Positions 11,723 to 61,354 of a DNA stretch of 64,000 bases are shown piece after piece. Position numbers and translations under genes: made by a program. Each line of letters starts with the position of its first letter. Within the stretch, counting starts at the first letter, position 1. The stretch spans positions 1,811,655-1,875,654 of the forward strand of contig OZ220707.1 in assembly GCA_965116685.1 (NCBI GenBank), written 5' to 3'. Source of the DNA: Rhodothermales bacterium (GTDB lineage: Bacteria; Bacteroidota; Rhodothermia; Rhodothermales; Bin80). The notes under the pieces were generated by a model. The model was not told where the DNA came from. It saw only the letters and a list, made by a program, of their open reading frames with translations, and searched no databases.

Positions 11723-11736
11723 TTGCAAGGAAGCGC

Positions 11737-14004: not shown

Positions 14005-14324
14005 CCTCCGCCAAACTCCAAGCCTCCCAATAAGCTACGAATTGAGATCCTATAATTGTTCTAAATCCTGCCCCAACCGTATAAAGCAAGGGACCAAAAA
14101 CGGATCGTTTCCGTGTGCTACAATAGACATGTCTCACTGTTCAGGCGTCTCCGAATTCTCCCCCCTGACATCTGCAACCCCGTTGGGCCATTAACACTCC
14201 AGATGTTCCGATGCACGTATACCAACTTCGGCGAATCAATGCATTTCATACTTGACTGGCAAGTTCGTAGTTTTAATATTCACCGTGTGCTTCGCTTGTA
14301 CCACATATACCCGATAATCCCCCA

Positions 14325-15062: not shown

Positions 15063-15078
15063 GCCTCCGAGGAGTGGC

Positions 15079-39548: not shown

Positions 39549-39851
39549 TCAGTCAATTTCACTGAGATCGTACCAGTCTATCTCCCGCTCACCAATACCG
39601 TCCTCTCCGGGTGCTCGCTCGATGAGAGTCACAAGAGTTGAACCGAAAATGTCGAAACCCATGAGCCGGTCCTGGACGCGCACTGCACCGACATATGTGG
39701 TGCCAGCCCAGACGTCAAAATAGGAGAACGCGTCGCGGTCGCGGGTGGTAGACACCCAGAGACGGTTCTGACCATCAAACCTGAATGCTGGCTTGAGGAG
39801 CCACTCCTTGGGCTCTCCTCGAAACTCCGCTGCAATGACATGTATCTCCGA
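39549..39851 (-). pseudogene. C-terminal fragment of a 6-bladed-beta-propeller-type lipoprotein gene split by the ISL3-bounded unit
   Basis: The open frame SEIHVIAAEFRGEPKEWLLKPAFRFDGQNRLWVSTTRDRDAFSYFDVWAGTTYVGAVRV...DWYDLSEID* begins exactly at the IS boundary and has no start codon. It continues the frame of 54137-54279. Confidence 0.65.
39844..39850. repeat. Target-site duplication, left copy (ATCTCCG)
   Basis: Identical 7-mer at 54137-54143, immediately outside the opposite ISL3 end. With the next base it is 8 bp with one mismatch (ATCTCCGA vs ATCTCCGG). Confidence 0.7.
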
Positions 39852-41122
39852 GATTCTACCGCGATTCCTATGGAATGATTAAATTTGGGCTCACTCAATA
39901 CAGAGGTATCCAATGGAAAGGGATTTCGTCACAGTGATGCGCTACAGCTTAGGATTAGGGCACGACTGGAAGATTGACAAGATGCTGGTGGACGAGCGGG
40001 AGCAGTAGATTGATATCTACATTTCGCATTCGGGAGGCACGTTGTTTTGCCCCGAGACGGGAGAGTCCGGTACACTCTATGATCATCGTGAGGAACGGAC
40101 TTGGCGCCACTTGGATTTGTTGGAATTCAAGTGTTTTATCCATTGTCGGGTTCCGCGGGTAGATGCGGGGGTGAAGACGATTAAGACGCCTTGGGCGGGT
40201 GCCTCAGATCGGTTCACGCATGCGTTTGAGCGCTGGACGATTGACTTGCTGTAAGCGACGAAGAATCAAACAAAGACCGCAGAGCTTCTTCGTTGTGGGT
40301 TTGACATCATCAATCGGATCATGCATCGCAGTGTATCCCGTGGAGAAGAGCGACGATCGCTGGACGGGATTGTGCATTTGAGTGTGGATGAGAAGGCGTT
40401 TCAGCGCGGGCATACGTATGCCACCATTGTCAGTGATACGAAGCGTGGTGTGGTGCTTGATGTCGGTGAAGGTCGGGACAAAGTTCGTGCAAAAGCGATG
40501 TTAAGCCGCCTTTGGTGGGATAAAAAGGCACAAATAAAGACCCTCACCACCGATATGTGGAAGGCCTACATTGCCCTGGCCAAGGAGGACCTCCCCGACG
40601 CAGAACTCATTCATGATCGTTTTCATTTGGTCAAGTATCTCAATGAGGGGATTGATCAAGTACGTCGCAGAGAGGTGAAGCAACATGAGGAACTCAAACA
40701 CAGTCGTTATGCGCTCTTGAAAAATGAACAGAATCGAACCCAAAAACAAGACGAGATTTTCAAAGTCATCCAGGAATCCAACTTGCAGGTCAGCGTCCCC
40801 TGGCGATTGCGAGAGGAATTCAAGGCGATCTTTGAATGCAGATCATTGTCCGATGCAAAGCAGTACTTCCAACTTTGGTTTGAGAGTGTGAAAGAAGCAG
40901 CCGTGAAGGAGATCATAAAAGTGGCGGAGATGTTTGAACGACATCTCACAGGCGTGTGTAATGCCCTTTGCCACGAACAGTCCAACGCCAGAGCATGCAA
41001 TGGGAAGATCCAGGAGGTCAAAACGATCGGTAGAAGATATAGAAAATTTGAAAACTTCCGATCGGCGATTCTTTTTTTCTGCGGCGATTTAGACCTCCAT
41101 TCACAATATTCACGGTAGAACC
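39852..41122 (+). mobile_element. ISL3-family insertion sequence, full-length copy 1
   Basis: IRL GATTCTACCGCGATTCC... matches the reverse complement of IRR ...ATTCACGGTAGAACC (GGTTCTACCGTGAAT). A single transposase frame lies inside. Confidence 0.8.
39937..41118 (+). pseudogene. ISL3 transposase with two in-frame stop codons
   Basis: One frame reads MRYSLGLGHDWKIDKMLVDEREQ*IDIYISHSGGTLFCPETGESGTLYDHREERTWRHLD...WTIDLL*ATKNQ...DEKAFQRGHTYATIVSD... The stops are TAG at 40006-40008 and TAA at 40252-40254. Confidence 0.8.
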
Positions 41123-41363
41123 GAATTAATTTCTAAAATCGCGGCTATTTTGGGGTACCGCCGCCCCCCCAACTAGCCGCCCCTAACGGCTGTCAGTTTT
41201 TCAAAAAAAACCTTGAACCTATGGAGAAAATCGTGTCTTCAAGAAACCGGAATGGGGGGAAGTTCAGTTATGGAATCAGGGAAGAATGCAATCTAAGGGG
41301 GCAATCATAAACAAATTTCCCATCTTATTCCGTTTGGCTCTTGCACTTGCAATGTTCAAGTCA

Positions 41364-44300
41364 CTAATACTGGAGCGATCCCCGCACATTCACGCCGATG
41401 TCTCCCAGTGAAGCTGTACGGCTGTGTGCCAGACCAAAGACCGAGAAGGTCAGCCGCTCCCATGGATGAAGTTCACCGCCCAACCGGTACATCCTGCCCT
41501 GTGACAGCTGAGTCACTCCCATGATTGACCGGGCGGTGCCATCTTTCCACGGAATCCCATACCCCAACTCCAATTCGGTCCGGTGAACCCCTGTCCCCAT
41601 CGGCGCCGCATCCCGGATCGTCTGCTGACCATACAGCGACATCCCCTGTCCCAGACCCCATGAAGGTCGTACCCGCATCATTAATCCTTCCGACCGGTTT
41701 CCCACCTGCACGAATCCCGAGATCCCCCACTCGCTGAACCCCGCCGCCGTATGCATCACCAGTCCCTGCGCGTGCACATCTGCCTTCAAGCGCCACGCCG
41801 GGTACGCTATCCGCATCCCTCCGCCAAACTCCAAGCCCACGCCCGTCTCCGCACTCCCGCCATCACTGCGCACATTCGCCTCCACATAGGGACGAAGCAC
41901 ATTGTTGATCCGCGCATTTGCTTCCACCCCTGCCCGAACCCGGTACACCTCCGCCGTCACCGCATGCGCCTCAATCTCTGCATCCGTCACCAGCACATCT
42001 CCATGATAGTTCAGCCCAATGGTGCTGTTTGATACCAGTGTTCCCCGAACCCCCATCGCACCAAACCTTGATGTCAGATCGCCGTCCAGCTCCAGCACCT
42101 CGGCCTGTCCGCGTCCGGCCCCGGCGCTCAACCATACCTCCCATCCTGCACGCGCCACCGACACATACGGATACACGCCCGTCAATCCTGCAGTGATCTC
42201 TCCCGACTCCTGCGCCGCCGCAAACGATCCCTCGCCCTGACTGTGGGACAGTAGAACCCCTGCCAGCCAGCCTCCCTTCCACCGGTAGTCTGCCCCCAGC
42301 ATCCCGGTGGTCACCTCGCCATCCAGCGTTAACCCGTCATCCTCCCGACCATTGAATTGACGGAATGCTCCCCGGCCCCATACACTGAACGACCCGCTGT
42401 ACGAGGTCGCCGACATGCGGCAGCCGCCCAACAACTCTCCCAGGGACGGATCCCAGGAAGAAGCCGAATACCAGAGCCGGGACATCTCTGCGCGCGTTGC
42501 CGCCCCGCATGCTGTACCATCCGCTCCGCGGAACCGATCCCCCAGTGCCTCCACCACCTGGGTCGCCGACGTCCGAACAAACCGTGCCGTATACGCCTCC
42601 AAGGCTTCCTGGCTTACCGTGGTTGCCGCCTGGATCGTTGCCACGCCCACCGCCTTCGCAATCTCTGCATTCTCCGAAGACTCCAGATGCACCGTGAAGG
42701 TCTCCTCCTGCCAGTCCAGCCCGTCCTTCAGGAGCGGGACCGCGATCATGGCATCCAACGTCCCCGGTGCCAGCGTCACGACTCCCGAAGCGGCTTCATA
42801 GTCTTCCCCCGCCTTCGCCGTTCCATCCTGCGTCCGGTATGCAGCCGAGATCATTTGACGCTGCGGATGGGACAGTGAGACTTGGAAACGGACCATTCCC
42901 TCTTCTTCCTGTACCAGTGCATCCTCCACCCGAAGAATTGCCGTCCCCCCATCATTGTCCAGGATCGTGCCCGTCCCCGTTCCACGCGCAATGATTGCGT
43001 TCTGCGGTTTCAATAAGGTCACCGCAAACGTCTCCGTTGACTCCGGGATCTCATCATCGGTGATCTCAATCTCAATCACCCCCTGGGTGGCACCCGGATC
43101 AAAGATCACAATCCCACGCGATGCCGTGTAGTCCAGACCCGACTCTGCCGTGCCATCCGTGCTGGCATACTGCACGGTTACCACCACATCCGTGGGACGG
43201 CTGAGTTCGATGGGCAGTTGAATGGCACCTGCATCTTCCAATTCCCGCTTGTCGTAGATCGTGATCGTCAGCGGCCCCGGACGCTCGTCATTGTCGGTAA
43301 TCGTCACCGTGACCGGTGCCTCCTCTCCGTTGTAGCCGCCGCCAGATGCTGCGAGATTTAGCTCTATCGTATCCGTCTCATAATCCTCATCCTCCGCCGC
43401 CGTTAAGGTCACCGTTTGGGCCTGATTCCAGTTGGAGGTCGTAAACGTAAGAGGAGTGTCACTCAGGCTCAGATCCGTTCCCGCGTGGCCGCTGAAGGTT
43501 ACCGTCACCGGGCCCGAGGGTTGGGCCAGCAAACGGACCTCAAGTGGATGCGTGCCTCCTTCTTCCATGGTCACGGCCTCCTCAACCACGAGACCCGCTG
43601 CATCATTTTCCGCAATCGTCACCGTGATCGTTATTGGTATCAGTTCGTCGTAGCCTCCGCCCGACGCAGTCAACAACAGGATCCCTGAATCAGTCTCAAA
43701 ATCATCATCCTCCGTCGCCGTTAATGTCATCGTCTTGGGAGTCTGCCAATCCGCGGTTGTAAACGTGAGCGAGAACCGATCCAGCATTAGGTCCGGGTTC
43801 GTATTCCTTGTAATCGTTACCACCACCGGTCCGGAAGGCGATCGGGCAAGCGCAATCTTCAACTCCTCCGAACCTCCCTCGGGAACGGTTACCCGATCCC
43901 GGACATCAATCCCCGGTGCATCATTGTCCGTGATCGTTACCGGAATGTAGGCGATTTCCTCGTAGCCACCCCCATTTGCCGTTACGGTCAACGTCTCAAA
44001 ATTCGAACTAAAATCCGTGTCATCTTCCCCCGCCGTCAACGTCACCGACTTCGCCATATCCCAGTCCGCCGGACTAAACGTCAGATGCGGAGGACTATAG
44101 GTCAGCAGTGATCCTGTCGGCAAAGTCATCATCACCGTCACTTCACTCAATGGCTTCGAGGTTAATGTAATCTGAAACGTTTGGGTGCCCCCCTCCACGA
44201 CCGATACCGATGGAGGCGTATTAATCCCTGCCTCATCGTCGTCGATGATGGTCACCTTGACCAATGATTGCTCTCCATTGGCCAGCTCAGAGGGTAGGGG

Positions 44301-47300
44301 GCCAAGTGCCACGGTGAAGGTCTCGTCGTCTTCTGCAATCTTATCCGCAACCGTGGAAATGGAATAGTTCCCGCGTGTCTCGCCAGCGTTGATTGTAATC
44401 TGAACCGGAGGCGATGCCTCGTAATCCTCATCCTTCACCGCCGTGCCATTCGCCACCGTCAATGGTATCGTTACATCGGTATCCTGTGCATCGGACAAGG
44501 TTGCGGTCACGGTCACCGATTTACCCTCCTCCACGAAATTGAGGGCCACGGACAGGTTCGTCACGATTGCGTTATCTGCCTCTGCGTCCCAAACTGCCGT
44601 CGCAGATACCTCAGAGGCTGGACCGGTATTGACACCATTGGTGGCCGAATTCGCGGCCACCGTCACCACCACATCAACATTCCCATTTGGCGTGATCTGC
44701 AGCGTATACTCGGACGCATCCACTATGGAGAACGAGTTCTGCACCTTACTGCCCCCGGTCACCGTCACATCCGCATCATCAAAGCCCGTTACATCCTCCG
44801 TGAACTTGAACCTTGCCGGGAACATCGCTGTGGAGCTGATCGTAGCGGGGGCGATGATGTCCAAGGTTGGGATCGCATCCCACCTCACTGTTTCCGACTG
44901 AGCCGATGCCGGCACGCCGTGGCCCTGGACCGTTACAGCGCCCGCCCGCACCGTCACCACTACATCAACATTCCCATTTGGCGTGATCTGCAGCGTATAC
45001 TCGGACGCATCCACTATGGAGAACGAGTTCTGCACCTTACTGCCCCCGGTCACCGTCACATCCGCATCATCAAAGCCCGTTACATCCTCCGTGAACTTGA
45101 ACCTTGCCGGGAACGTCGCTGTGGAGCTGATCGTGCCGGGAACATTGATGCTTAAGGTGGGGATCGCATCCCACCTCACTGTTTCCGACTGAGCCGATGC
45201 CGGCACGCTGTGCCCCCGGACCGTTACAGCGCCCGCCCGCACCGTTACCACTACATCAACATTCCCATTTGGCGTGATCTGCAGCGTATACTCGGACGCA
45301 TCCACCATGGAGAACGAGTTCTGCACCTTACTGCCCCCGGTCACCGTCACATCCGCATCATCAAAGCCCGTTACATCCTCCGTGAACTTGAACCTTGCCG
45401 GGAACGTCGCTGTGGAGCTGATCGTGCCGGGAACATTGATGCTTAAGGTGGGGATCGCATCCCATCTCACTGTTTCCGACTGAGCCGATGCCGGCACGCT
45501 GTGGCCCTGGACCGTTACAGCGCCCGCCCGCACCGTCACCACTACATCAACATTCCCATTTGGCGTGATCTGCAGCGTATACTCGGACGCATCCACCATG
45601 GAGAACGAGTTCTGCACCTTACTGCCCCCGGTCACCGTCACATCCGCATCATCAAAGCCCGTTACATCCTCCGTGAACTTGAACCTTGCCGGGAACGTCG
45701 CTGTGGAGCTGATCGTGCCGGGAACATTGATGCTTAAGGTGGGGATCGCATCCCACCTCACTGTTTCCGACTGAGCCGATGCCGGCACGCTGTGCCCCCG
45801 GACCGTTACAGCGCCCGCCCGCACCGTTACCACTACATCAACATTCCCATTTGGCGTGATCTGCAGCGTATACTCGGACGCATCCACCATGGAGAACGAG
45901 TTCTGCACCTTACTGCCCCCGGTCACCGTCACATCCGCATCATCAAAGCCCGTTACATCCTCCGTGAACTTGAACCTTGCCGGGAACGTCGCTGTGGAGC
46001 TGATCGTGCCGGGAACATTGATGCTTAAGGTGGGGATCGCATCCCACCTCACTGTTTCCGACTGAGCCGATGCCGGCACGCTGTGCCCCCGGACCGTTAC
46101 AGCGCCCGCCCGCACCGTTACCACTACATCAACATTCCCATTTGGCGTGATCTGCAGCGTATACTCGGACGCATCCACCATGGAGAACGAGTTCTGCACC
46201 TTACTGCCCCCGGTCACCGTCACATCCGCATCATCAAAGCCCGTTACATCCTCCGTGAACTTGAACCTTGCCGGGAACGCCGCTGTGGAGCTGATCGTAG
46301 CGGGGGCGATGATGTCCAAGGTTGGGGCATCCCAACGCGCTGTTTCGGTGGCATCATTTATCGGCCCTGGATTATTGAAACCACCCGTTGCAGCGTTCGC
46401 CTTCACTGTTACCACCACATCGGCACCGCCGTCCGGCGTGATCACCAGATCGTAGATGTTTCCAGTTCCCGTGAACACGCCCTTCGTGCCGCCCGTCACC
46501 GTCACATCAGTGTCGTCGGTGGGATCAAATCCAATCACCGATTCCGAAAACATGAAGCTTGCCCTGATATTCGCCGTGGAGTTGATCGTGCCGGGAATCC
46601 CGATGCTCACCGTGGGGGCATCCCAACGCGCCGTTTCGGTGACATCATTTATCGGCCCCCGATTGGAACTACTCATTGCAGCGTTCGCCTTCACCGTTAC
46701 CACCACATCGACATCGCCGTCCGGCTTGATCACCAGATCGTAGGTGTCTCCAGTTCCCGTGAACGCGCCCTTCGTGCCGCCCATCACCGTCACATCAATG
46801 GCTTCGGTGGCGTCAAAATCCGTCACCGCCTCCGTCCATGTAAAGGTCGCCGTGATGTCCACCACGGAGTTGATCCTGGGTTTATCCAACGTGATCGCCA
46901 CCGTCGGAGCATCCTTCCAAACCGCCGTTTTGGACATCCTCTCTAACGGCCCCGTATTCGCGCCGTCGGTTACAGCGTCCACCTCCACCGTCATTACCAC
47001 ATTAGCATTACCGTCTGGTGTGATTTCCATCGTATATTTCCACCATTCTTCACTAACGGTGAACAGGTCCCCCATGCCCCCAGTCACTGTCACATCCCCG
47101 GCCTCAAAGCCCGTTACATTCTCCGAGAACACGAACGTCGCCGTGAAAGGGTCCGTCGTGTTGATCGTCGCCGGTATGTCAATACTCGACAAACCTGGGA
47201 CCGTCATATCACACTCCGCCTCGGCGGTGACACGCGACAACGGACCAAGGTTACTGGAGAGGTCCATTGCAGCATCTTCCTCTACCGTTACCGTCACCTT

Positions 47301-50300
47301 GTCGCCACTACCAGTACAGCCATCTCCCGTGATCGCCAGCGTGTACTCGGTTCCGCTCACGGCAGTAAAGGCACCTTTCGTGCCACCGGTGACCGTCACA
47401 TCGCCCGTCAAAAAGTCCGACACAGCCTCCGACCAAATAAAGGTCGCGGTGATGTTCGTCGTGGAGTTGATCGTGGAGGGAACCCCGGTGATCGTCACCG
47501 TTGGGGCGGCCGCGTCCCAGATGGCCATTTTGGAGACCTCGGAGGCCGGCCCCCTATTGACGCCATCGGTGGCCGCATTCGCGGCAACCTCAACCGTCAC
47601 ATTTGATCCGCTGGTTGGCGTGACCACCAGCGTGTACTCGATTCCGCTCTCGGCAGTAAAGGCACCTTTCGTGCCACCGGTGACCGTCACATCGCCCGTC
47701 AAAAAGTCCGACACAGCCTCCGACCACGTAAAGGTCGCGGTGATGTTCGTCGTGGAGTTGATCGTGGAGGGAACCCCGGTGATCGTCACCGTTGGGGCCG
47801 CATCCCAGGTCGCCGTCGCTGTCTCATCAGTGGCCGGGCCCGTATTGAGGGTGGCATCGGTGCCCGAATTCGCGTCCACCGTCACCACCACATCGGATCC
47901 GCTGGTTGGCGTGATCCCCAGCGTGTACTCGGTTGCGCTCACAACAGTAAAGGTGCCTTTCGCACCAGAGGGGGCCACCGACACATCCGTCGCATCAAAG
48001 CCCGTCACCGCCTCCGACCAGATAAAGGTCGCGGTGAACGCCGTCGTGGAGTTGATCGTGGAGGGAACCCCGGTGATCGCCACCGTTGGGGCCGCATCCC
48101 AGGTCGCCGTCGCTGTCTCATCAGTGGCCGGGCCCGTATTGAGGGTGGCATCGGTGCCCGAATTCGCGTCCACCGTCACCACCACATCGGATCCGCTGGT
48201 TGGCGTGATCCCCAGCGTGTACTCGGTTGCGCTCACAACAGTAAAGGTGCCTTTCGCACCAGAGGGGGCCACCGACACATCCGTCGCATCAAAGCCCGTC
48301 ACCGCCTCCGACCAGATAAAGGTCGCAGTGAACGCCGTCGTGGAGTTGATCGTGGAGGGAACCCCGGTGATCGCCACCGTTGGGGCCGCATCCCAGGTCG
48401 CCGTCGCTGTCTCATCAGTGGCCGGGCCCGTATTGAGGGTGGCATCGGTGCCCGAATTCGCGTCCACCGTCACCACCACATCGGATCCGCTGGTTGGCGT
48501 GATCCCCAGCGTGTACTCGGTTGCGCTCACAACAGTAAAGGTGCCTTTCGCACCAGAGGGGGCCACCGACACATCCGTCGCATCAAAGCCCGTCACCGCC
48601 TCCGACCAGATAAAGGTCGCGGTGAACGCCGTCGTGGAGTTGATCGTGGAGGGAACCCCGGTGATCGTCACCGTTGGGGCCGCATCCCAGGTCGCCGTCG
48701 CTGTCTCATCAGTGGCCGGGCCCGTATTGAGGGTGGCATCGGTGCCCGAATTCGCGTCCACCGTCACCACCACATCGGATCCGCTGGTTGGCGTGATCCC
48801 CAGCGTGTACTCGGTTGCGCTCACAGCAGTAAAGGTGCCTTTCGCACCAGAGGGGGCCACCGACACATCCGTCGCATCAAAGCCCGTCACCGCCTCCGAC
48901 CAGATAAAGGTCGCGGTGAACGCCGTCGTGGAGTTGATCGTGGAGGGAACCCCGGTGATCGCCACCGTTGGGGCCGCATCCCAGGTCGCCGTCGCTGCCA
49001 CATCAGAGGATGGGCCCATATTGGAAGAGGCAGCGGTAGCCGAACTCGCCTTCACCTTCACCTCCACATCGCCATTGGTGCCAGTCTGAGGGCCAGTTGG
49101 CGTGATCTTCAGCGTGTACAGACTTGCGTCCGAGGGATTTGGAGTAAAGGTGCCTTTCGTGCCATTGGTGACCCTCACATCGTTCTTCTTAAAGCCCGTC
49201 ACAGGCTCCGTCCATGTAAAGGTTGCGGTGAACGCCGTCGTGGAGTTGATCGTGGAGGGAACCCCGGTAATCTTCACCGTTGGGGTCGCATTCCAGATAG
49301 CCGTTTTGGAGACCGCAGTGGTCGGTCCGGGATTGAGACCATCCGTTGCAGCGTCCTTATTCACCCTCACCACCACATTGCCATTGGTGCCAGTCTGAGG
49401 TCCGTCTGGCGTGATCAGAAGACTGAATGTGGTAAAATTTGATCCAGATAAAGTACCTTTCGTGCCACCGGTAACCTCCACATCCTCACTCACAAATTGA
49501 AACACCGGTTCAGAAAACGCAAACGTCGCCGTGAACGCCGTCGTTGAGTTGATCTCATCTGGCACCCCGATCGTCACCGTTGGGGCGTCCGCATCCCAAA
49601 CTGCCCTCGCTTTCACATTAGAGGCCGGACCGGTATTAATGCCATCACTAAGAGCGTGCGCATCTATTGCCACCACCACATCCTGACCGCCCAATGGCGT
49701 TAACCTCCATGTGCGCGTGATTCCATGTGAAGAAGTCCTGCTATGGGAGGAGGTGCCACCAAATCTCACATTAGCGTAAGCCCCATCCCCATCCAACGCC
49801 TCGCTGAACTTAATGGTTACATCAAACGGTGTCCTTGAGTTGATCTTTACTGGAACTCCGGTGACGCCTACCACCTTTGGGGGCACATCATCCCATTTCA
49901 CCGTCTCGGTCACCGCAGAGCTCGGGCCTGGATTGTCGTCACTATCCTTCACAGAATTCGCCTTCACCGTCACCTCCACATCTTCGTTGCCGTTTGGCGT
50001 GATCTCCAACGTATACGTGTCATCATCCACGCGAGTCAAACTTCCCAACACATCGTGCCCGGTCACCGTCACATCGCTAATCGCAAAATCCTGCACATCC
50101 TCGTCGAATTCAAACGTCGCCGTGAACAGAGCCGTTGAGTTGATCCTGCTGCTGGGAAACACAATGTTCACAACTGGGCTTGCATCCCAACGCGCAGTGG
50201 CGGTGACGGGAGCTGTCGGGCCATCGTTTGTACCGTCCGAGGCAGCATTCTTCTTCACCTTCACCACCACATTGGCGGCGCCGTCTGGCATGATCTCCAG

Positions 50301-51338
50301 CGTGTACACGGTTGCACTCACAACATTCCATGTGCCTTTCGTGCCCCCGTCCACCCTCACATCGTTCTTTTTAAAGCCCGTCACATCCTCTAACCATGTA
50401 AATTTTGCCGTGAACGGAGTCAGGGTTTTGATCGTCGCGGGGACATCGCTGATCGTCACCGTTGGGGCGCCCGCATCCCAAACCGCCGTCTTGAACACAT
50501 CAGCCGGGCCCGTATTGCCGTCATTATCCGTCACAGTGCCCGCCGTCACCGTCACATCGCCATTGGTGGGAGGGATTGCGTCAGGGTCAGGACCGTTTGG
50601 CGTAATCTCCAGCGTATATGTAAGATCTCCACTAACACCCGTAAAATCTCTGAGTCTGGCAGTGCTACGACCACGTACTGTATTGATTTTCAATCCCTCA
50701 ACTGCTTCAAGTGTATGCCTCCCCCCCCCCATTTTTGCGTCTGAACTACTCCAGACCTCGTCCCTCTCAGACAGGAGTATCTCTGAGTCCTCCATCACCT
50801 CACCACGACTATCTGAGTTTACGAAGAGACTTGTCCCACCCGACTTAACCACAGGTTTTGGGACGAATACTAAACGATGCCGATCCCCAACCTCCACGAC
50901 CACATCATCAAACTTGCTTCCATCACCCCCGTCCGCTTTAAAGGCGCGTTCTTCGTCAAGGATCACCTGCGTCCCAGTATAATGGGTCGTACAGTTATTG
51001 TTGCCTGGATCCCTTACTGCAACATCAGCATCCCATCCTCCGAATTTGTTCTCTCTGAAGACTATGTGGTTTGAATGAGAAACTCCAGAATCAGAACAGA
51101 CGATTGCTTTCTGTTCACCGTTATCGTCATGGTTCAATCCCCCGCCCTCCAGTCCAGTTGAAATAACCCCAGGGGCAGACCCCAATTTTATATCAAAAAA
51201 ATCAGGGTTCAATTTCTCTTCCGTTGTCGTATATCCTGAATATCTGAATCCATGGTCATTGACCCCGTACGACTGCGAGTAAAGGACTGTCGGACACAGT
51301 AGTCTAGGTAGAACCATTGCTACGATCAGGATATGCAT
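41364..51338 (-). CDS. Giant autotransporter-type adhesin: about 22 Ig-like modules, Calx-beta and related modules, C-terminal beta-barrel translocator
   Basis: Repeated roughly 97-aa modules (P-T-V-x-I...INSTTAFTATF.W.E.VTGF...DV.V.GG.KG.F......YTL.ITP...DVVVTV.AN...D....GP......A.WDA). Calx-beta-like blocks (ANGTAVKDEDYEA...DDETFTVAL; STDGTAESGLDYTA; TQDGTAKAGEDYEA). Last roughly 330 aa fit an autotransporter beta-domain pattern (SVWGRGAFRQF...MLGADYRW...VNVRGSLQY). The start is uncertain: ATG 51338 (MHILIVAMVLPRLLCPTVLYSQS) is used here; ATG 51425 and ATG 51317 are alternatives. Confidence 0.75.
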   Translation of the reverse strand: MHILIVAMVLPRLLCPTVLYSQSYGVNDHGFRYSGYTTTEEKLNPDFFDIKLGSAPGVISTGLEGGGLNHDDNGEQKAIVCSDSGVSHSNHIVFRENKFGGWDADVAVRDPGNNNCTTHYTGTQVILDEERAFKADGGDGSKFDDVVVEVGDRHRLVFVPKPVVKSGGTSLFVNSDSRGEVMEDSEILLSERDEVWSSSDAKMGGGRHTLEAVEGLKINTVRGRSTARLRDFTGVSGDLTYTLEITPNGPDPDAIPPTNGDVTVTAGTVTDNDGNTGPADVFKTAVWDAGAPTVTISDVPATIKTLTPFTAKFTWLEDVTGFKKNDVRVDGGTKGTWNVVSATVYTLEIMPDGAANVVVKVKKNAASDGTNDGPTAPVTATARWDASPVVNIVFPSSRINSTALFTATFEFDEDVQDFAISDVTVTGHDVLGSLTRVDDDTYTLEITPNGNEDVEVTVKANSVKDSDDNPGPSSAVTETVKWDDVPPKVVGVTGVPVKINSRTPFDVTIKFSEALDGDGAYANVRFGGTSSHSRTSSHGITRTWRLTPLGGQDVVVAIDAHALSDGINTGPASNVKARAVWDADAPTVTIGVPDEINSTTAFTATFAFSEPVFQFVSEDVEVTGGTKGTLSGSNFTTFSLLITPDGPQTGTNGNVVVRVNKDAATDGLNPGPTTAVSKTAIWNATPTVKITGVPSTINSTTAFTATFTWTEPVTGFKKNDVRVTNGTKGTFTPNPSDASLYTLKITPTGPQTGTNGDVEVKVKASSATAASSNMGPSSDVAATATWDAAPTVAITGVPSTINSTTAFTATFIWSEAVTGFDATDVSVAPSGAKGTFTAVSATEYTLGITPTSGSDVVVTVDANSGTDATLNTGPATDETATATWDAAPTVTITGVPSTINSTTAFTATFIWSEAVTGFDATDVSVAPSGAKGTFTVVSATEYTLGITPTSGSDVVVTVDANSGTDATLNTGPATDETATATWDAAPTVAITGVPSTINSTTAFTATFIWSEAVTGFDATDVSVAPSGAKGTFTVVSATEYTLGITPTSGSDVVVTVDANSGTDATLNTGPATDETATATWDAAPTVAITGVPSTINSTTAFTATFIWSEAVTGFDATDVSVAPSGAKGTFTVVSATEYTLGITPTSGSDVVVTVDANSGTDATLNTGPATDETATATWDAAPTVTITGVPSTINSTTNITATFTWSEAVSDFLTGDVTVTGGTKGAFTAESGIEYTLVVTPTSGSNVTVEVAANAATDGVNRGPASEVSKMAIWDAAAPTVTITGVPSTINSTTNITATFIWSEAVSDFLTGDVTVTGGTKGAFTAVSGTEYTLAITGDGCTGSGDKVTVTVEEDAAMDLSSNLGPLSRVTAEAECDMTVPGLSSIDIPATINTTDPFTATFVFSENVTGFEAGDVTVTGGMGDLFTVSEEWWKYTMEITPDGNANVVMTVEVDAVTDGANTGPLERMSKTAVWKDAPTVAITLDKPRINSVVDITATFTWTEAVTDFDATEAIDVTVMGGTKGAFTGTGDTYDLVIKPDGDVDVVVTVKANAAMSSSNRGPINDVTETARWDAPTVSIGIPGTINSTANIRASFMFSESVIGFDPTDDTDVTVTGGTKGVFTGTGNIYDLVITPDGGADVVVTVKANAATGGFNNPGPINDATETARWDAPTLDIIAPATISSTAAFPARFKFTEDVTGFDDADVTVTGGSKVQNSFSMVDASEYTLQITPNGNVDVVVTVRAGAVTVRGHSVPASAQSETVRWDAIPTLSINVPGTISSTATFPARFKFTEDVTGFDDADVTVTGGSKVQNSFSMVDASEYTLQITPNGNVDVVVTVRAGAVTVRGHSVPASAQSETVRWDAIPTLSINVPGTISSTATFPARFKFTEDVTGFDDADVTVTGGSKVQNSFSMVDASEYTLQITPNGNVDVVVTVRAGAVTVQGHSVPASAQSETVRWDAIPTLSINVPGTISSTATFPARFKFTEDVTGFDDADVTVTGGSKVQNSFSMVDASEYTLQITPNGNVDVVVTVRAGAVTVRGHSVPASAQSETVRWDAIPTLSINVPGTISSTATFPARFKFTEDVTGFDDADVTVTGGSKVQNSFSIVDASEYTLQITPNGNVDVVVTVRAGAVTVQGHGVPASAQSETVRWDAIPTLDIIAPATISSTAMFPARFKFTEDVTGFDDADVTVTGGSKVQNSFSIVDASEYTLQITPNGNVDVVVTVAANSATNGVNTGPASEVSATAVWDAEADNAIVTNLSVALNFVEEGKSVTVTATLSDAQDTDVTIPLTVANGTAVKDEDYEASPPVQITINAGETRGNYSISTVADKIAEDDETFTVALGPLPSELANGEQSLVKVTIIDDDEAGINTPPSVSVVEGGTQTFQITLTSKPLSEVTVMMTLPTGSLLTYSPPHLTFSPADWDMAKSVTLTAGEDDTDFSSNFETLTVTANGGGYEEIAYIPVTITDNDAPGIDVRDRVTVPEGGSEELKIALARSPSGPVVVTITRNTNPDLMLDRFSLTFTTADWQTPKTMTLTATEDDDFETDSGILLLTASGGGYDELIPITITVTIAENDAAGLVVEEAVTMEEGGTHPLEVRLLAQPSGPVTVTFSGHAGTDLSLSDTPLTFTTSNWNQAQTVTLTAAEDEDYETDTIELNLAASGGGYNGEEAPVTVTITDNDERPGPLTITIYDKRELEDAGAIQLPIELSRPTDVVVTVQYASTDGTAESGLDYTASRGIVIFDPGATQGVIEIEITDDEIPESTETFAVTLLKPQNAIIARGTGTGTILDNDGGTAILRVEDALVQEEEGMVRFQVSLSHPQRQMISAAYRTQDGTAKAGEDYEAASGVVTLAPGTLDAMIAVPLLKDGLDWQEETFTVHLESSENAEIAKAVGVATIQAATTVSQEALEAYTARFVRTSATQVVEALGDRFRGADGTACGAATRAEMSRLWYSASSWDPSLGELLGGCRMSATSYSGSFSVWGRGAFRQFNGREDDGLTLDGEVTTGMLGADYRWKGGWLAGVLLSHSQGEGSFAAAQESGEITAGLTGVYPYVSVARAGWEVWLSAGAGRGQAEVLELDGDLTSRFGAMGVRGTLVSNSTIGLNYHGDVLVTDAEIEAHAVTAEVYRVRAGVEANARINNVLRPYVEANVRSDGGSAETGVGLEFGGGMRIAYPAWRLKADVHAQGLVMHTAAGFSEWGISGFVQVGNRSEGLMMRVRPSWGLGQGMSLYGQQTIRDAAPMGTGVHRTELELGYGIPWKDGTARSIMGVTQLSQGRMYRLGGELHPWERLTFSVFGLAHSRTASLGDIGVNVRGSLQY
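44580..46325 (-). repeat. Six tandem 291-nt coding repeats (97-aa Ig-like modules), the four central units near-identical
   Basis: The marker GATCGCATCCCA recurs at 44871, 45162, 45453, 45744 and 46035, an exact 291-nt spacing. Shadow ORFs recur at 44919/45210/45501/45792/46083. Confidence 0.9.
47791..48966 (-). repeat. Four tandem 294-nt near-identical coding repeats (98-aa Ig-like modules)
   Basis: GTTGGGGCCGCATCCCAGGTCGCC recurs at 47791 and 48085 and then at 294-nt steps up to 48967. The protein shows four copies of APTV(A/T)ITGVPSTINSTTAFTATFIWSEAVTGFDATDVSVAPSGAKGTFT... Confidence 0.9.
50721..50730 (-). repeat. Homopolymeric G10 tract (C10 on plus strand) inside the adhesin coding region
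   Basis: The plus strand reads TGCCT-CCCCCCCCCC-ATTTTT. The coding strand reads AAA ATG GGG GGG GGG AGG (KMGGGR), about 200 codons from the start. Confidence 0.9.
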
Positions 51339-51427
51339 CGCAGTGTATCCCGTGGAGAAGAGCGACGATCGCTGGACGGGATTGCGCATTTGAGTGTGGA
51401 TGAGAAGGCGTTTCAGCTCGGGCATAT
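51333..51427 (+). mobile_element. ISL3 copy 2, internal fragment (equivalent to 40321-40413 of copy 1); 5-prime third of the IS absent
   Basis: ATGCATCGCAGTGTATCCCGTGGAGAAGAGCGACGATCGCTGGACGGGATTG(C/T)GCATTTGAGTGTGGATGAGAAGGCGTTTCAG... shows 2 mismatches to copy 1. The antisense strand supplies the first 29-30 codons of the listed 3353-aa ORF. Confidence 0.8.
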
Positions 51428-53430
51428 GTAGTGTCTGTCCGAGAATACCATCGCATCTCTAAAATGTGCCTTTATGCCCTCCTGTGTCTGGATTTTGTCG
51501 CAATTCTCTCCATTTTTTTCTCGCCGATTTTTTTAATTCCTCTCGGGGGCGGGTGATTTTCAGGAAAATCCACAATCCCTGAAAAACCTGTATTGGAAGC
51601 ATCCCAAGGCGGTTTTTACTCTGAATTTATTCTTCAGATTTGTCGATCCATGCCTGGATCATGGGAGTATAAGTGGAACCGGGCCGTTCATCTTCAACTT
51701 TTTTTTGCGATGCGAAAAGCGTATGACTTTCAATTATCAATGGATTGCATCTCCATGGAGGAGATCCAGCTTGATCCAAGAAGCCGGGATGTGATTCAAG
51801 TATTTCTGTATGGGCTCCGACAAATTTTTCTGGACCTCCCGACCCGATTGAAGTTGATGGATCTTTTGGAGAGGTATAAACCGGGAACCCGTAAGAATTG
51901 TGGGCGCCCCGGAATGGACGTGTGGAATATCTTGGTTTTGGCCGGCCTGAAGCAGGCGCTGCATTGCAACTATGATCTTTTGACCGCTTTGGCGAACCAT
52001 ATGGATATTGTGCGGCAGATGCTGGGGCATGGAGCGGACGATCGGACCCGCTACACTCGTTCCGCCATTCATGATAACGTATCGGCACTGTCCCCCGAAT
52101 TGCTGGTGCAGGTCAATTGTTTGGTGGTCAAACTTGGGCACCGAATGGTCGGCAAACCCGAGGGCGAGACGCTCAAATGTCGGTGCGACTCGAAACCGGT
52201 GAAGACCAATGTTCGCTTTCCGACCGATCTGCTCTTGCTCTGGGACTCGGTACGTTGTCTGATTCGTGTCAGTGCGAAGGTGGGCAAATCATTTGGGATG
52301 GATGGTTGGCTGCAACACCAAAGTCTGAGCAATAAGGTCTACCGGGAATATAGGGCAGCTCGGAAGGGTCAGCGGCGTGACTACAAACTCAAGAACGTTC
52401 GCAGATATCTGCGCAGCAGTCGTGCGATGGTCAAAAAATCTCTTGACCTTCTGGAGCAGATCAATGCACTGGAGCAGGAGATTTTGGCCCGTTCCGGCCC
52501 CCGTTCCAATGCAGATCAAGCCACTTTGCAGGAAATTTTTGAGGCCAAACAGGAACTCTGTCTGTATCTGGACTACATTGCGCGATTTTCCGATCAGATC
52601 CAGCGCCGCATCTTTGAAGGAGAGCAGATTCCTACCCACGAGAAAATCTATTCGATCTTCAAGCCGTTCACGCGATGGATCGTCAAGGGCAAGGCAGGAA
52701 TCCTCTGCGAGTTGGGGGTCCCGGTCGCGGTGATTGAAGATGAGGATCAATTTGTTTTAGGCTACGGGATTCTTTGGGAGGGAACCGACAAGGATATTGC
52801 GATTCCCCTGGTGAAGACCTTGGAGGCACAGTATCCAGGGATCTCCATGACCTGCTCGTTTGACCGGGCGTTTTACAGTCCTGAGGTGCGTAAGCAGTTG
52901 GATGAAAAGCTGGAAGTTACGGCCATGCCGAAGAAAGGGGGGCGGACCCAAGAGGAACAAGCACGTCAGAATGACCCGGCTTACCAGAACGCACGGAAGG
53001 GGCATGCCGGAGTAGAGTCCTGCATGAACCATCTCAACCATCGGGGCTTGTCACTGGTGCGTGAGACCAGCAGCGAAAGCTTCGAACGTGTGGTGGCAAC
53101 CTCGGTATTGGCCGCGAACATCCACCGGTTGGGGACGCTAGTGCGAGATCAGGAACGAAAGCGTCTCAGACGTCTCCAGAAACAACGCAAGCGATTGCGG
53201 CGCGCGGCGTAGCCATCCCGCTTATCCGAGGAAGAACATCAAGTGGCTCGTACGGGCGGATGCGAGAGGTGTGTCCAGTAGATACGAAATACCTGTAATA
53301 CAGAAAAATCCAGCACAAACAAGTGTCTCAAAAACGACCGCCCCACCAATAATCAAACGGATTGAACCAAAATGAACCCCAATATCTCGGAACAGACCCG
53401 GAGCACAGGCATTTTCTGGACAGACACTAC
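51428..53430 (+). mobile_element. ISNCY-family insertion sequence (copy A) nested inside ISL3 copy 2
   Basis: Terminal inverted repeats GTAGTGTCTGTCCGAGAATACC (51428-) and GGCATTTTCTGGACAGACACTAC (-53430). ISL3 homology resumes at 53431 exactly where it broke at 51427. Confidence 0.8.
51710..53212 (+). CDS. ISNCY-family DDE transposase (copy A)
   Basis: MRKAYDFQLSMDCISMEEIQLDPRSRD..., GRPGMDVWNILVLAGL, CDSKPVKTNVRFPTD, EKIYSIFKPFTRWIVKGKAGILCELG, CSFDRAFYSPE and RKGHAGVESCMNHL. This pattern matches ISNCY transposases as I recall them. Confidence 0.8.
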   Translation: MRKAYDFQLSMDCISMEEIQLDPRSRDVIQVFLYGLRQIFLDLPTRLKLMDLLERYKPGTRKNCGRPGMDVWNILVLAGLKQALHCNYDLLTALANHMDIVRQMLGHGADDRTRYTRSAIHDNVSALSPELLVQVNCLVVKLGHRMVGKPEGETLKCRCDSKPVKTNVRFPTDLLLLWDSVRCLIRVSAKVGKSFGMDGWLQHQSLSNKVYREYRAARKGQRRDYKLKNVRRYLRSSRAMVKKSLDLLEQINALEQEILARSGPRSNADQATLQEIFEAKQELCLYLDYIARFSDQIQRRIFEGEQIPTHEKIYSIFKPFTRWIVKGKAGILCELGVPVAVIEDEDQFVLGYGILWEGTDKDIAIPLVKTLEAQYPGISMTCSFDRAFYSPEVRKQLDEKLEVTAMPKKGGRTQEEQARQNDPAYQNARKGHAGVESCMNHLNHRGLSLVRETSSESFERVVATSVLAANIHRLGTLVRDQERKRLRRLQKQRKRLRRAA

Positions 53431-54136
53431 GTATGCTACCATTGTCAGTGATACGAAGCGTGGTGTGGTGCTTGATGTCGGTGAAGGTCGGGACAAAGTT
53501 CGTGCAAAAGCGCTGTTAAACCGCCTTTGGGGGGATAAAAAGGCACAAATAAAGACCCTCACCACCGATATGTGGAAGACCTACATCGCCCTGGCCAAGG
53601 AGGACCTCCCCGACGCAGAACTCATTCATGATCGTTTTCATTTGGTCAAATATCTCAATGAGGGGATTGATCAAGTACGTCGCAGAGAGGTGAAGCAACA
53701 TGAGGAACTCAAACACAGTCGTTATGCGCTCTTGAAAAATGAACAGAATCGAACCCAAAAACAAGACGAGATTTTCAAAGTCATCCAGGAATCCAACTTG
53801 CAGGTCAGCGTTGCCTGGCGATTGCGAGAGGAATTCAAGGCGATCTTTGAATGCAGATCATTGTCCGATACAAAGCAGTACTTCCAACTTTGGTTTGAGA
53901 GTGTGAAAGAAGCAGCCGTGAAGGAGATCATGAAAGTGGCGGAGATGTTTGAACGACATCTCACAGGCGTGTGTAATGCCCTTTGCCACGAACAATCCAA
54001 CGCCAGAGCATGCAATGGGAAGATTCAGGAGGTCAAAACGATCGGCAGAGGATACAGAAAATTTGAAAACTTCCGATCGGCGATTCTTTTTTCTGCGGCG
54101 ATTTAGACCTCCATCCATAACATTCACGGTAGAACC
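53431..54136 (+). mobile_element. ISL3 copy 2, 3-prime part up to IRR
   Basis: Collinear with 40416-41122 of copy 1, with about 8 amino-acid differences over about 235 residues. A T-run indel near the end changes the C-terminus. Ends ...CACGGTAGAACC at 54136. Confidence 0.85.
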
Positions 54137-54143
54137 ATCTCCG
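54137..54143. repeat. Target-site duplication, right copy (ATCTCCG)
   Basis: Identical to 39844-39850, directly abutting the ISL3 IRR. Confidence 0.7.
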
Positions 54144-54950
54144 GTTCACTAACCGGTCCTGCAAGAGAGCGGAGACGAACCCTGCTATTCACATGAGCGG
54201 CAACGTCACGTTCATTGGGCAGCGCTTCAACGTAGCTGGGAGAAGCGACCACGGTGACCGTTGAGGCATCCCTGTGATCAAAAACACCAGTTCATATTCA
54301 CAGACATGAAATACGAGTCCCCCATCCGGCGTTGAGACCCCCACCGCCGGATTGAAACATTCGCGGTCCACGGCATCAGCTAGATCCGTGCGCTCCCACA
54401 GAACCTCCCCGGAGGATGCATCAACTTCTTGGGGAACATAACTGGGCTGGAATAATCCTTCGCTGAAATCGGCAGGCGTCGGCGTTACCAACTCAAAACC
54501 GAGCAAATGACCACCACGTAGTAGGGTCAACTGGAAACCGGATGGCATACGTGTCTCCGACATGAGATTGCCATCCGGGCTGAACAAACTCAGTCGCCCT
54601 CCCCCGACCCCAAAGTCCAACGCCGCTACATGACCGGCCCGGCCACGCTCAATCCCGGAGAGTGCCTCTAACTCCCCCGGCCCTCTACCCTTTCCCCCGA
54701 ATACGGTGACGGTGCCCTCAACCCTGTCCATACAATGAATGCAAGCCTCATAGGAGTCGGTTACGCACACAATCTCTTCAGACAAGATTGCTATGTGGTT
54801 GGTGGTACTCATCGGAGCACCACTTGAGGCGAAGGGAGAAAATGCAATGGTCTCCAGCACATCGGTCCCCTCCGATGCGCATCCGGTGACAGCCAATAGA
54901 CAAAAAACGGCGGCCACCGGGGAACACAGCACCAAACCAATCTTCAACAT
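54137..54950 (-). pseudogene. N-terminal fragment of the split beta-propeller lipoprotein gene (also carries one frame break near 54278)
   Basis: Lipoprotein signal MLKIGLVLCSPVAAVFCLLAVTGC and a FGGKGRGPGEL motif typical of 6-bladed beta-propeller (NHL-like) lipoproteins. From about 54279 a second frame (HRDASTVTVVASPSYVEALPNERDVAAHVNSRVRLRSLAGPVSEPE) reads straight into the fragment at 39851. Confidence 0.65.
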
Positions 54951-55251
54951 GATCGTCTCTCTGAACATAGTAAGGAATGAAAGAAACCTTGTGATTCCTT
55001 TTTTTGCGATTCATGTGGAGGCTTGATGAATTTGGGGACCCACGCAAATATGAAAGCATCAATGGCGTAGTTCCAAAGGCCCCGTCATGAAGTCCAAGAG
55101 CAATTACAGTCTTTATTTGCAACTCGGCGAGTACTTTCAGCACATCTTGTTGTTTCTTTTTGTTACTTTAAGGGCATAACTCCTTAACTTGGACCTTTAA
55201 CCAGAACGGTTCTAATAGAGCCTGCATGATTCCTATCGCCTTCTATCAACG

Positions 55252-59890: not shown

Positions 59891-61354
59891 TCAGGTATTT
59901 CTGCGATTGCGCCAGGTGGTGGTCCGTGAATCCGAGGGCCGGGATTTCTGCAGTAAGACGGTTGCCACAGCGGCGGCTTTCGTTGGCACGTCGGCCTGCT
60001 CTGTCAGAAGTTCCGGGTGCTCATCCACGAAATGAGTACTGAGACGAGTTTCCTGCCATGCTGCACTTTGCATAACACGGCGGCAGAATTGGCGCGTTGT
60101 TTTTACTCCTGCAATCTGATAATCACTTAAAGCACCGATCATTCTCTGTGTTGCTTCCTCACGCGTACGACCCCACGTAGTCACTTTTGAGATCATTGGA
60201 TCGTAATAGATTGGCACCTCGCCGCTGACCTCCAGACCGCTATCCACCCGGACCCCAACCCCTGTCGGAACCTGATGAAACGTAATCCTGCCCGGATTCG
60301 GTAAAAAGTTGGATTCTGGATCCTCTGCATAAATGCGACACTCTACCGCGTGCCCATGAATCTCTATTTCCTTTTGTTCGTACGGCAGAGGTGCCCCTTC
60401 TGCGATCCTGATTTGCTCGGCAACAAGATCCAATCCAGTGATGTACTCGGTGACCGGGTGCTCCACTTGAAGGCGCGTATTCATTTCCATAAAGTAGAAG
60501 TTATTGTCCTGATCAAGTAAAAATTCAATGGTCCCCGCACCAACATACTTGCATGCCTGTGCGGCGCGGATCGCCGCTGCCCCCATGCAGGCTCTCAACT
60601 CTGCAGTCATGTCTGCACAGGGGGCTTCCTCAATGACTTTCTGGTGGCGTCGTTGTATGGAGCACTCGCGTTCAAACAGATGGATACATTTGCCGTATGC
60701 ATCTGCAAGGATCTGAAATTCTACGTGCCGTGGATTTTCCAAATACTTCTCAATAAAGATGCGGGCATCCCCAAAGGCAGAACCTGCTTCCCCCTGTGCC
60801 CGGTCAAGCGCCTGCTCCATTTCCTGGGCGCTGTTCACCTTGCGCATCCCTTTGCCGCCACCTCCTGCCGCTGCTTTTGCGAGCACCGGATATCCAATTT
60901 GGTCCGCAATGGCTAGTGCTTCGTCAACATGGGTGACCGCTCCTGCGGTTCCTGGAACCACCGGTACATCATGTGCCTGCATGACCTTTCTGGCCAACAT
61001 CTTGTCTCCCATGTCACTGATCGCCTGCGCGGAAGGGCCAATGAACACAACCCCCTGTTCTGCACACGCCTTCGCAAGTTCAGCCCGCTCAGACAAGAAC
61101 CCATAACCTGGATGAACCGCGTCTGCCCCACTTTCTTTGATCGCATCCATAATCCGGCTCAGATTCAAGTAAGATTCTACCGATGGGGCAGGGCCCACAC
61201 AATAGGCCTCGTCTGCATAGACCACATGGGCACTTCTGCGATCAATCTCACTGTAGATTGCAACCGAACGTATCCCCAGCACTTTACAGGTGCGCATGAT
61301 CCGCAGCGCAATCTCTCCTCGATTCGCAATCAGTATCTTTGAAGTCTTCTTCAT
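59891..61354 (-). CDS. accC: Biotin carboxylase (acetyl-CoA carboxylase subunit)
   Basis: KILIANRGEIALRI, ATP-grasp GGGGKGMR, EMNTRLQVEHPVTE and IDPM-type motifs. Has a tail about 35 aa longer than E. coli AccC. Confidence 0.85.
   Translation of the reverse strand: MKKTSKILIANRGEIALRIMRTCKVLGIRSVAIYSEIDRRSAHVVYADEAYCVGPAPSVESYLNLSRIMDAIKESGADAVHPGYGFLSERAELAKACAEQGVVFIGPSAQAISDMGDKMLARKVMQAHDVPVVPGTAGAVTHVDEALAIADQIGYPVLAKAAAGGGGKGMRKVNSAQEMEQALDRAQGEAGSAFGDARIFIEKYLENPRHVEFQILADAYGKCIHLFERECSIQRRHQKVIEEAPCADMTAELRACMGAAAIRAAQACKYVGAGTIEFLLDQDNNFYFMEMNTRLQVEHPVTEYITGLDLVAEQIRIAEGAPLPYEQKEIEIHGHAVECRIYAEDPESNFLPNPGRITFHQVPTGVGVRVDSGLEVSGEVPIYYDPMISKVTTWGRTREEATQRMIGALSDYQIAGVKTTRQFCRRVMQSAAWQETRLSTHFVDEHPELLTEQADVPTKAAAVATVLLQKSRPSDSRTTTWRNRRNT

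Follow-up and report, generated by a model that had tools for sequence, protein, structure and literature searches.

A giant putative adhesin gene as cargo of an ISL3-bounded unit inserted into a lipoprotein gene of an uncultured Rhodothermales bacterium

The window analysed here is a 64,000-nucleotide stretch of contig OZ220707.1 (assembly GCA_965116685.1, positions 1,811,655 to 1,875,654) from an uncultured Rhodothermales bacterium. Positions 39852-54136 of the window form a block of 14,285 bp in which two directly oriented, decayed copies of an insertion sequence (IS) of the ISL3 family, both on the plus strand, lie around a 10-kb autotransporter adhesin gene, and this 14.3-kb block interrupts a conserved lipoprotein gene. 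The outer ends of the block are bordered by ATCTCCGA (39844-39851) and ATCTCCGG (54137-54144), an 8-bp target duplication with one substitution, and the lipoprotein gene is uninterrupted in related bacteria. The adhesin gene reached this site as IS-bounded cargo. The features of the block and its borders are the following, in window coordinates, with IRL and IRR standing for left and right inverted repeat and ORF for open reading frame:

39629 to 39843, minus strand: C-terminal part of the target gene, a conserved lipoprotein of unknown function; its frame continues from 54145-54968 after removal of one 8-mer
39844 to 39851, no strand: left target duplication, ATCTCCGA, or TCGGAGAT on the minus strand; the single site of relatives is TCGGAGAT, GCGGAGAT or TCAGAGAT
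39852 to 41122, plus strand: ISL3 copy 1, full length, 1271 bp, with IRL at 39852-39877 and IRR at 41097-41122; PF01610, NF033550
41123 to 41363, no strand: spacer of 241 bp from the copy-1 IRR to the adhesin stop codon, with a weak hairpin followed by a T-run at 41174-41202
41364 to 51332, minus strand: adhesin-derived coding sequence, codons 32-3353 plus stop, comprising a unique N-terminal region, Big_12, Calx-beta and beta-barrel; the mechanical ORF extends to 51425
51329 to 51430, plus strand: ISL3 copy 2, left piece, equal to copy 1 positions ~465-567 (blastn 96.1% over 103 bp)
51431 to 53427, plus strand: ISNCY-1, 1997 bp, which splits ISL3 copy 2; transposase ORF 51593-53212 (539 aa; NF033593, 341.5 bits)
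53428 to 54136, plus strand: ISL3 copy 2, right piece, equal to copy 1 positions 562-1271 (blastn 97.2% over 710 bp), with IRR at 54111-54136
54137 to 54144, no strand: right target duplication, ATCTCCGG, or CCGGAGAT on the minus strand; this junction is also present in Logan contig L001
54145 to 54968, minus strand: N-terminal part of the target gene, with lipoprotein signal LLAVTGC and a -1 frameshift in the A5 run at 54280-54284

Copy 1 starts with its IRL, GATTCTACCGCG, and ends with its IRR, CACGGTAGAACC, and its transposase frame (39913-41118, 401 codons) is interrupted solely by the nonsense codons TAG at 40006-40008 and TAA at 40252-40254. The C-terminal 265 codons of this frame match PF01610 (E 1.8e-56) and the NCBIfam ISL3 model NF033550 (199.8 bits, cut-off 180 bits), and the right piece of copy 2 matches PF01610 as well (E 5.3e-55). 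Copy 2 is without the first ~470 bp of the element, including the IRL, and has lost 1 nt near its 3' end. Neither copy retains a working transposase gene, that of copy 1 being broken by the two nonsense codons and that of copy 2 truncated and split by ISNCY-1, while the inverted repeats at the outer ends of the unit (IRL in copy 1, IRR in copy 2) are complete. An earlier reading of this DNA, made from the letters and the list of open reading frames and called here the sequence-only reading, had described two directly oriented ISL3 copies around the adhesin gene, and its coordinates stand, except that copy 2 starts at ~51329. It was right to call both copies defective, but its conclusion that the unit is frozen in place is not established, because a transposase acting in trans could use the intact outer repeats. 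IRL and IRR match each other at 17-19 of 26 positions, and their tips, GGTTCTACCGC and GCGGTAGAACC, are kept in seven related copies; full-length relatives measure ~1.27 kb and have the same inverted repeats. According to the ISfinder description, elements of the ISL3 family are ~1.2-1.5 kb long and have terminal inverted repeats of 15-39 bp. The DDE transposase, the length, the inverted repeats and the 8-bp duplication of the present element, which are the properties tested, are all those of this family, and a related copy in locus L024 also has an 8-bp duplication (AGTCATTA/AGTCACTA). The closest relative found is L022 310-3737 (LXNI01000499.1), with 96% protein identity and an insert of ~3.4 kb that lies away from the ISNCY-1 site. 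Most of the related copies (L023-L028) are frameshifted, and for this reason the ISL3 subgroup appears largely decayed in the metagenomes that hold L022-L028.

The duplication sits exactly at the tips of the outer inverted repeats and includes the 7-mer ATCTCCG (39844-39850 and 54137-54143), which the sequence-only reading had already extended to 8 bp with one mismatch. For the one position pair compared, which is set by the inverted repeat tips, 7 or 8 matches in 8 would arise by chance with a probability of 25/65536 = 3.8e-4 by our own arithmetic. When one 8-mer is removed, minus strand 54968-54145 plus 39843-39629 plus the remaining 8-mer make one reading frame for a lipoprotein of the 369-residue type, so that the flanks are indeed two halves of one gene, as had been proposed. 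The joined protein has 97 homologues, the best five of which (363-369 residues) share 71-82% identity over 100% of the query, with the best at 82%; no naming family was found for it in Pfam or NCBIfam. In the homologues the stretch corresponding to the A5 run at 54280-54284 needs A6 and reads ELAFFDHRDA, and the identical A5 run occurs in the independent contig L001, because of which we consider the frameshift probably a real decay of a dead gene and not a homopolymer error.

At the DNA level, the joined flanks (empty-site sequence GTTAGTGAAYCGGAGATACATGTCATTGC) align gaplessly across the junction in five related loci, including L002 (89.7%), L004 (87.2%) and L003/L005 (86%). The single site reads GCGGAGAT in L002, TCGGAGAT in L004 and TCAGAGAT in L003/L005, and the window has CCGGAGAT and TCGGAGAT. 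In plain blastn the overlap between the two flank matches is 7 nt in L002 and 8 nt in L004/L010, which indicates that exactly 8 bp were duplicated and that one copy has since changed by one base. An operon for an ABC ATPase, a solute-binding protein and a permease stands on one side in L002-L005, as it does in the window, and L002 has a TonB-dependent receptor gene on the other side and no insert. Furthermore, a genome scan of GTDB with an alignment-based query from the joined target protein (a single-protein query matched nothing) gave 12 representative genomes with an intact gene, almost all named as Rhodothermales or Rhodothermaceae metagenome-assembled genomes. Since one of the 12 repeats the chromosome of L004, the related loci amount to 15 distinct ones. 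The target gene is intact in all 15, with the gene order of the window wherever the neighbours were resolved, and neither the adhesin gene nor this ISL3 stands at the site in any of them. The empty site that the sequence-only reading expected in relatives is therefore there, and an adhesin gene at this locus without ISL3 copies was seen in none of the 15. MPNB01, which is one relative, and the metagenome records LXNI01 and MKWU01, which hold related ISL3 copies, presumably come from a sponge metagenome study, and a sponge habitat would also be plausible for the organism of the window.

These data bear on the idea that the adhesin gene is native to the locus and that two ISL3 copies inserted independently on its two sides, the 8-mer being a coincidence. 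ISL3-family elements do lie near adhesin homologues in L007 and L008, and the region gathers IS elements in several relatives, but the flanks are two gene halves with a gapless join at exactly one 8-mer, the gene is intact and the adhesin absent at the site in 15 relatives, and a match of the 8-mer by chance has the low probability given above (3.8e-4). The gapless join and the empty sites refute this idea, and we give it practically no credence.

The right junction, with the variants specific to copy 2, was also found in an independent Logan assembly (L001, run ERR14375725). Exact-protein contig look-ups with seven ORFs of the window returned no record, whether for either ISL3 ORF, the ISNCY transposase, the giant ORF, the ABC ATPase or the solute-binding protein. 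In this regard, an assembly artefact could have threaded an ISL3-adhesin-ISL3 segment wrongly into a solo ISL3 within the lipoprotein gene, since the window comes from a metagenome-assembled contig of 3.76 Mb, ISL3 is a repeat, and the independent assembly covers, of the two outer junctions and the ISL3-adhesin joins, the right junction only. Such an error would, however, need two switches within 0.8 kb of 97% identity between copies that long reads tell apart easily (22 sites plus an indel, the truncation and the ISNCY insert), and the Logan junction carries copy-2-specific variants; we consider an artefact very improbable.

The cargo is a giant ORF of 3353 codons (41364-51425, minus strand). 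Pfam finds 19 Big_12 Ig-like domains (E 5e-143) and three Calx-beta domains in it, and its last 440 residues are an autotransporter translocator domain, which matches PF03797 with 31.9 bits (cut-off 26 bits) over profile positions 1-118 of 255. Calx-beta and precomputed PF03797 autotransporter matches are also on record for homologues, which reach 98% identity. An AlphaFold2 model of the barrel domain (mean predicted local distance difference test score, pLDDT, 66.9) has a helix at 24-52 followed by long antiparallel strands forming a beta-barrel, and its best Foldseek matches in the PDB are EstA, Hbp, BrkA (target TM-score 0.73), AIDA-I, EspP and NalP, all of them autotransporter beta-domains. 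A PDB sequence search with the same domain returned nothing useful, and the single-sequence structure model of the N-terminal domain (pLDDT 32) was unusable. From the domain matches and the model, the cargo protein is predicted to be a type Va autotransporter with a passenger of Ig-like and Calx-beta repeats. It shares with AIDA-I, BrkA and Hbp the C-terminal PF03797 beta-barrel and the linker helix, but its passenger consists of ~19 Big_12 domains plus Calx-beta domains and not of a beta-helix, and its putative signal peptide is partly IS-derived. The domain content makes a long surface fibre plausible and the label "adhesin" reasonable. The gene also contains tandem DNA repeats at 44658-46298 and 47328-49071 (291 nt x 5.6 at 98%; 294 nt x 6 at 93%), each unit of which corresponds to one Ig-like domain. 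Because these repeats are nearly identical in DNA, their number likely varies between strains, with a risk of collapse or expansion in assembly. The guanine-plus-cytosine content is 54-64% in the adhesin gene and ~52-55% in the flanks; a foreign origin read from this difference was considered and rejected, as the repeat composition of the adhesin explains it.

The 5' end of the adhesin gene is fused to ISL3. Codons 1-31 of the ORF are antisense to ISL3 copy 2, and codons 4-31 match the antisense translation of the ISL3 element in L007. Homology of the N-terminus to P0144 (41% over 159 residues), the only informative N-terminal homologue in an exhaustive HMMER search (a word-based search with the N-terminal 298 aa was empty), starts at residue 32, which lies within the hydrophobic signal-peptide core. 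This core is conserved (ILIVAMVLPRLLCPTVLYSQ in the window and ILTTMIVLSGLLCPTILYSQ in P0144), and P0144 has 24 extra residues upstream. The join of ISL3 position ~470 to the adhesin sequence, at 51329-51333, is not at an IS end, which points to an illegitimate deletion or recombination as its origin. To judge from these alignments, the native signal peptide has been partly replaced by IS-derived sequence, and the native promoter has been lost, probably together with the native start codon. Possible start codons are M1, M13, M30 and M37, in a genome without Shine-Dalgarno usage, and a scan of 51200-51800 revealed no sigma-70-like promoter. An apparent third ISL3 end at 51290-51315, which ends in GGTAGAACC (51307-51315), agrees with IRR1 in 18 of 26 positions and is 14 bp distant from the truncation of copy 2, was judged a chance match because equal scores occur elsewhere in the window and because this stretch codes for the signal-peptide core conserved in P0144. 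At the opposite end of the gene, the spacer has a terminator-like site (41174-41202) and no homology to the DNA downstream of the adhesin homologues in L006-L008, where homology ends at the stop codon. An Rfam scan of the whole window gave no match. While the gene is thus cargo of the IS copies, as the sequence-only reading had it, its 5' end is not intact, given that its native start and upstream region have been replaced by antisense ISL3. That reading also missed this 5' loss, the type Va identity predicted from the Big_12 and Calx-beta repeats and the barrel, and the -1 frameshift in the split gene.

The structure of the block, the duplication, the empty site and the domain content are direct observations. 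Two copies of the same IS lie around a cargo, with a single outer duplication and an empty site in relatives, as in a compound transposon, and a working transposase in a flanking IS is at present lacking. We favour, with a probability of roughly 0.55, the reading that an ISL3-bounded unit resembling a compound transposon entered one target site and was moved by its outermost ends. The enzyme step behind the insertion and the order of the later events are what we infer. ISL3 transposase would have acted on the copy-1 IRL and the copy-2 IRR, either of a pre-formed ISL3-adhesin-ISL3 compound element that transposed or in a replicative, cointegrate-type integration of a circle with one ISL3 and the adhesin gene, and a staggered cut at the target would have produced the 8-bp duplication. 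Decay in place would then have brought the two nonsense codons into copy 1, an internal deletion fusing ISL3 position ~470 to the region coding for the adhesin signal peptide, the insertion of ISNCY into copy 2, one substitution in the duplication and the frameshift in the dead target gene. In favour of this reading, ISL3-like transposons described in the literature circularise together with a passenger gene and duplicate 8 bp of their target (PMC5559704).

The two ISL3 copies differ at 22 sites plus an indel. When these differences were polarised with five outgroup ISL3 elements, ~13 were derived on copy 1 and ~10 on copy 2, with a nonsynonymous to synonymous ratio of 14:8. Because derived changes are found on both copies, interspersed and without a switch, the pattern fits a parallel decay of copies that had been alike at the formation of the unit, and may mildly favour movement by the outermost ends. 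A crossover mosaic between the copies was looked for and rejected in the absence of a switch pattern, at the low power that ~22 informative sites give.

Several points weigh against this favoured reading. Among the adhesin and ISL3 loci compared, neither a second copy of the unit nor a circle junction nor an intact transposase of this element was found, and movement as a unit is consequently deduced from one insertion only. The nearest relatives with an empty site are other species, with 76-82% protein identity, and not conspecific strains. Direct orientation, which the recombination and cointegrate routes require, is one of two options for a classical compound transposon. Finally, a full copy 1 together with a copy 2 that starts at ~470 is the very layout expected if a circle that held part of an ISL3 had entered by one crossover.

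These last two points lead to a two-step alternative, in which a solo ISL3 made the 8-bp duplication and the adhesin gene with a partial ISL3 later recombined into this resident copy. This could have happened by Campbell-type integration of a circle (ISL3 ~470-1271 plus adhesin), by a double crossover with donor DNA holding the adhesin gene between two ISL3 copies, or by transposase-catalysed targeted integration beside the resident IS, as in IS26 translocatable units. Such a history predicts the direct orientation, and it also predicts a full left copy, the cargo and a right copy starting inside the IS without any further deletion. Moreover, ISL3 elements with passengers form circles (PMC5559704), integration of a megacircle beside a resident IS has been documented for a large exoprotein locus of Burkholderia thailandensis (PMC6350997), and for the ISL3-bounded liaSR of Enterococcus faecium the authors preferred homologous recombination (PMC9484755). 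On the other hand, the copy differences have no crossover switch, although one crossover could be missed with ~22 informative sites; a solo-ISL3 allele of the site was not found among the relatives, all of which are of other species; and the two-step history needs the same illegitimate ISL3/adhesin junction as the favoured one, so that no event is saved. We regard it as an alternative somewhat less probable than movement by the outermost ends. The sequence-only reading had offered transposition and recombination into a resident copy, and these are the two routes that the present data leave standing and do not tell apart; its claim of a single insertion event agrees with transposition but not with recombination, which takes two events.

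Among known systems, the classical compound transposons (Tn9 with direct IS1 copies, Tn10, Tn5) share with the favoured reading of this unit the two IS copies, the transposition by the outermost inverted repeats and the one duplication of IS-typical size. Here, in contrast, the elements are of the ISL3 family, the cargo is one 10-kb surface-protein gene instead of resistance genes, the inner part of one IS is deleted, both transposases are dead and a single insertion is known. The ISL3-like fosB transposon of Enterococcus plasmids belongs to the same family and has a passenger gene, 25-bp inverted repeats, 8-bp duplications and circular intermediates (PMC5559704, PMC3812183), but its 2.5 kb comprise just one pair of inverted repeats, which enclose the passenger and one transposase gene, while the present unit has a second IS copy, an additional IRR inside and a cargo of 10 kb. 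The liaSR structure of Enterococcus faecium has been described as a putative pseudo-compound transposon, with two direct ISL3 copies around chromosomal genes (PMC9484755). That structure has the same neighbourhood in all genomes and no duplication was analysed, whereas here the duplication and the empty site demonstrate relocation. IS26 translocatable units also involve direct IS copies, with a circle of IS plus cargo that integrates beside a resident IS and rebuilds the compound structure, and the 210-kb IS2-like bcpAIOB megacircle of Burkholderia thailandensis has direct IS copies and a cargo that includes a very large surface exoprotein system (PMC6350997). These two cases concern the IS6 and IS3 families and circles obtained in experiments; ours concerns ISL3, 14 kb and a single gene, and is known from sequence alone.

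With regard to the age of the insertion, each of the two target duplications (of the ISL3 unit and of ISNCY-1) has one substitution, that is, 2 in 28 bases, and derived change amounts to ~1.3% per ISL3 copy, which suggests that about 1% or more of neutral divergence has accumulated after the insertions. The adhesin frame, 9966 nt long, is open, when at 1.4% neutral divergence ~3 stops would be expected (probability of none ~0.04). The lack of stops in spite of the decay of ISL3 copies and duplications is a weak argument that selection may have kept the frame despite its rebuilt 5' end. The adhesin is presumably still expressed.

As to where the cargo came from, the 3'-terminal 3.2 kb of the adhesin gene has a DNA identity of 92-94% to two tandem paralogues in L006, 76% to L007 and 70% to L008, and the flanking genes are 84-90% identical to those of relatives. 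The cargo thus belongs to a gene family native to the lineage and does not appear to have come by a distant transfer. The 3.58-Mb genome that contains L008 is also one of those with an empty target site. The contig of L006 (ERZ25069412 ctg830227_1x_c, 18.5 kb; its name marks it as 1x and circular) holds at least three tandem adhesin paralogues, two barrel domains of which have 97.5-98% protein identity to that of the window, and no ISL3; it may be a real circle, a tandem array or an artefact of a single read.

The sequence-only reading had proposed to look for adhesin genes next to ISL3 elsewhere. In L007 and L008, two of the three further regions with an adhesin homologue that were compared, an ISL3-family element stands 0.1-3.2 kb downstream of the homologue. 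The element in L007 has 61-66% protein identity to copy 1 and the same relative orientation, 3.2 kb from the homologue, and that in L008 is a different one (27-35% identity), in opposite orientation and itself interrupted. As a control, ~200 kb of empty-site loci contain one ISL3. Seen from the other side, none of nine metagenome loci with related ISL3 copies has an adhesin within 10 kb. Taken together, the loci give a hint of an association between ISL3 and adhesin genes. A far bolder proposal would be that ISL3 recurrently relocates giant autotransporter adhesins in sponge-associated Rhodothermales, and that here an ISL3 remnant, perhaps with an ISNCY end, has been co-opted as promoter, start codon and signal-peptide n-region of a still-selected adhesin; this we consider unlikely. 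In L008 (OZ244823.1, 2.52-2.54 Mb; positions 1545-3272 and 11033-16221) an IS (DDE_Tnp_1) interrupts the adhesin homologue, and the unrelated ISL3 that follows has been split by another IS and by the reverse transcriptase gene of a group II intron. In this lineage mobile elements seem to gather at giant adhesin loci.

The unit is no new kind of mobile element; it is ordinary in mechanism, real and well supported. Its interest is that of a clean case of IS-mediated relocation, with a target duplication, an empty site in the same synteny and dated decay, in which not a resistance gene but a very large gene for a surface protein was carried and the host belongs to an uncultured Rhodothermales lineage. 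Compound structures of ISL3 with evidence of a duplication are rarely documented, and according to a 2022 paper no ISL3-bounded structure of this type had previously been described (PMC9484755). Relocation of this kind is one possible way for such bacteria to shuffle their repertoire of giant adhesins, and so to vary their surface. The unit also illustrates how the 5' end of a gene can be joined to part of an IS while the frame appears to stay open.

ISNCY-1, the element inside copy 2, scores above the cut-off of its model (NF033593, 325 bits) and has inverted repeats GTGTCTGTCC and GGACAGACAC at its two ends and a 6-bp duplication with one mismatch, TATGTA (51425-51430) and TACGTA (53428-53433), where copy 1 has a single TACGTA. 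Transposase type, inverted repeats and duplication all agree with the ISNCY family. It inserted at the centre of a 12-bp ISL3 palindrome, GCATACGTATGC (window 51422-51436; copy 1 40411-40422), and because of this palindrome its ends were ambiguous and were fixed by comparison with a second ISNCY element of the window:

57866 to 59834, strand not assigned: ISNCY-2; transposase ORF 58060-59589 (509 aa), perfect 6-bp duplication CAACTA

ISNCY-2 has inverted repeats of 17 nt, GTGCTGGGCAGAAAATA and TATTTTCTGCCAAGCAC, and ~65% DNA identity to ISNCY-1. It lies between a TonB-dependent receptor gene and a gene at 59891-61354 with 88% DNA identity to a stretch of L004 that contains a biotin carboxylase gene, and in L004 the same intergenic region holds another IS (DDE_Tnp_1).

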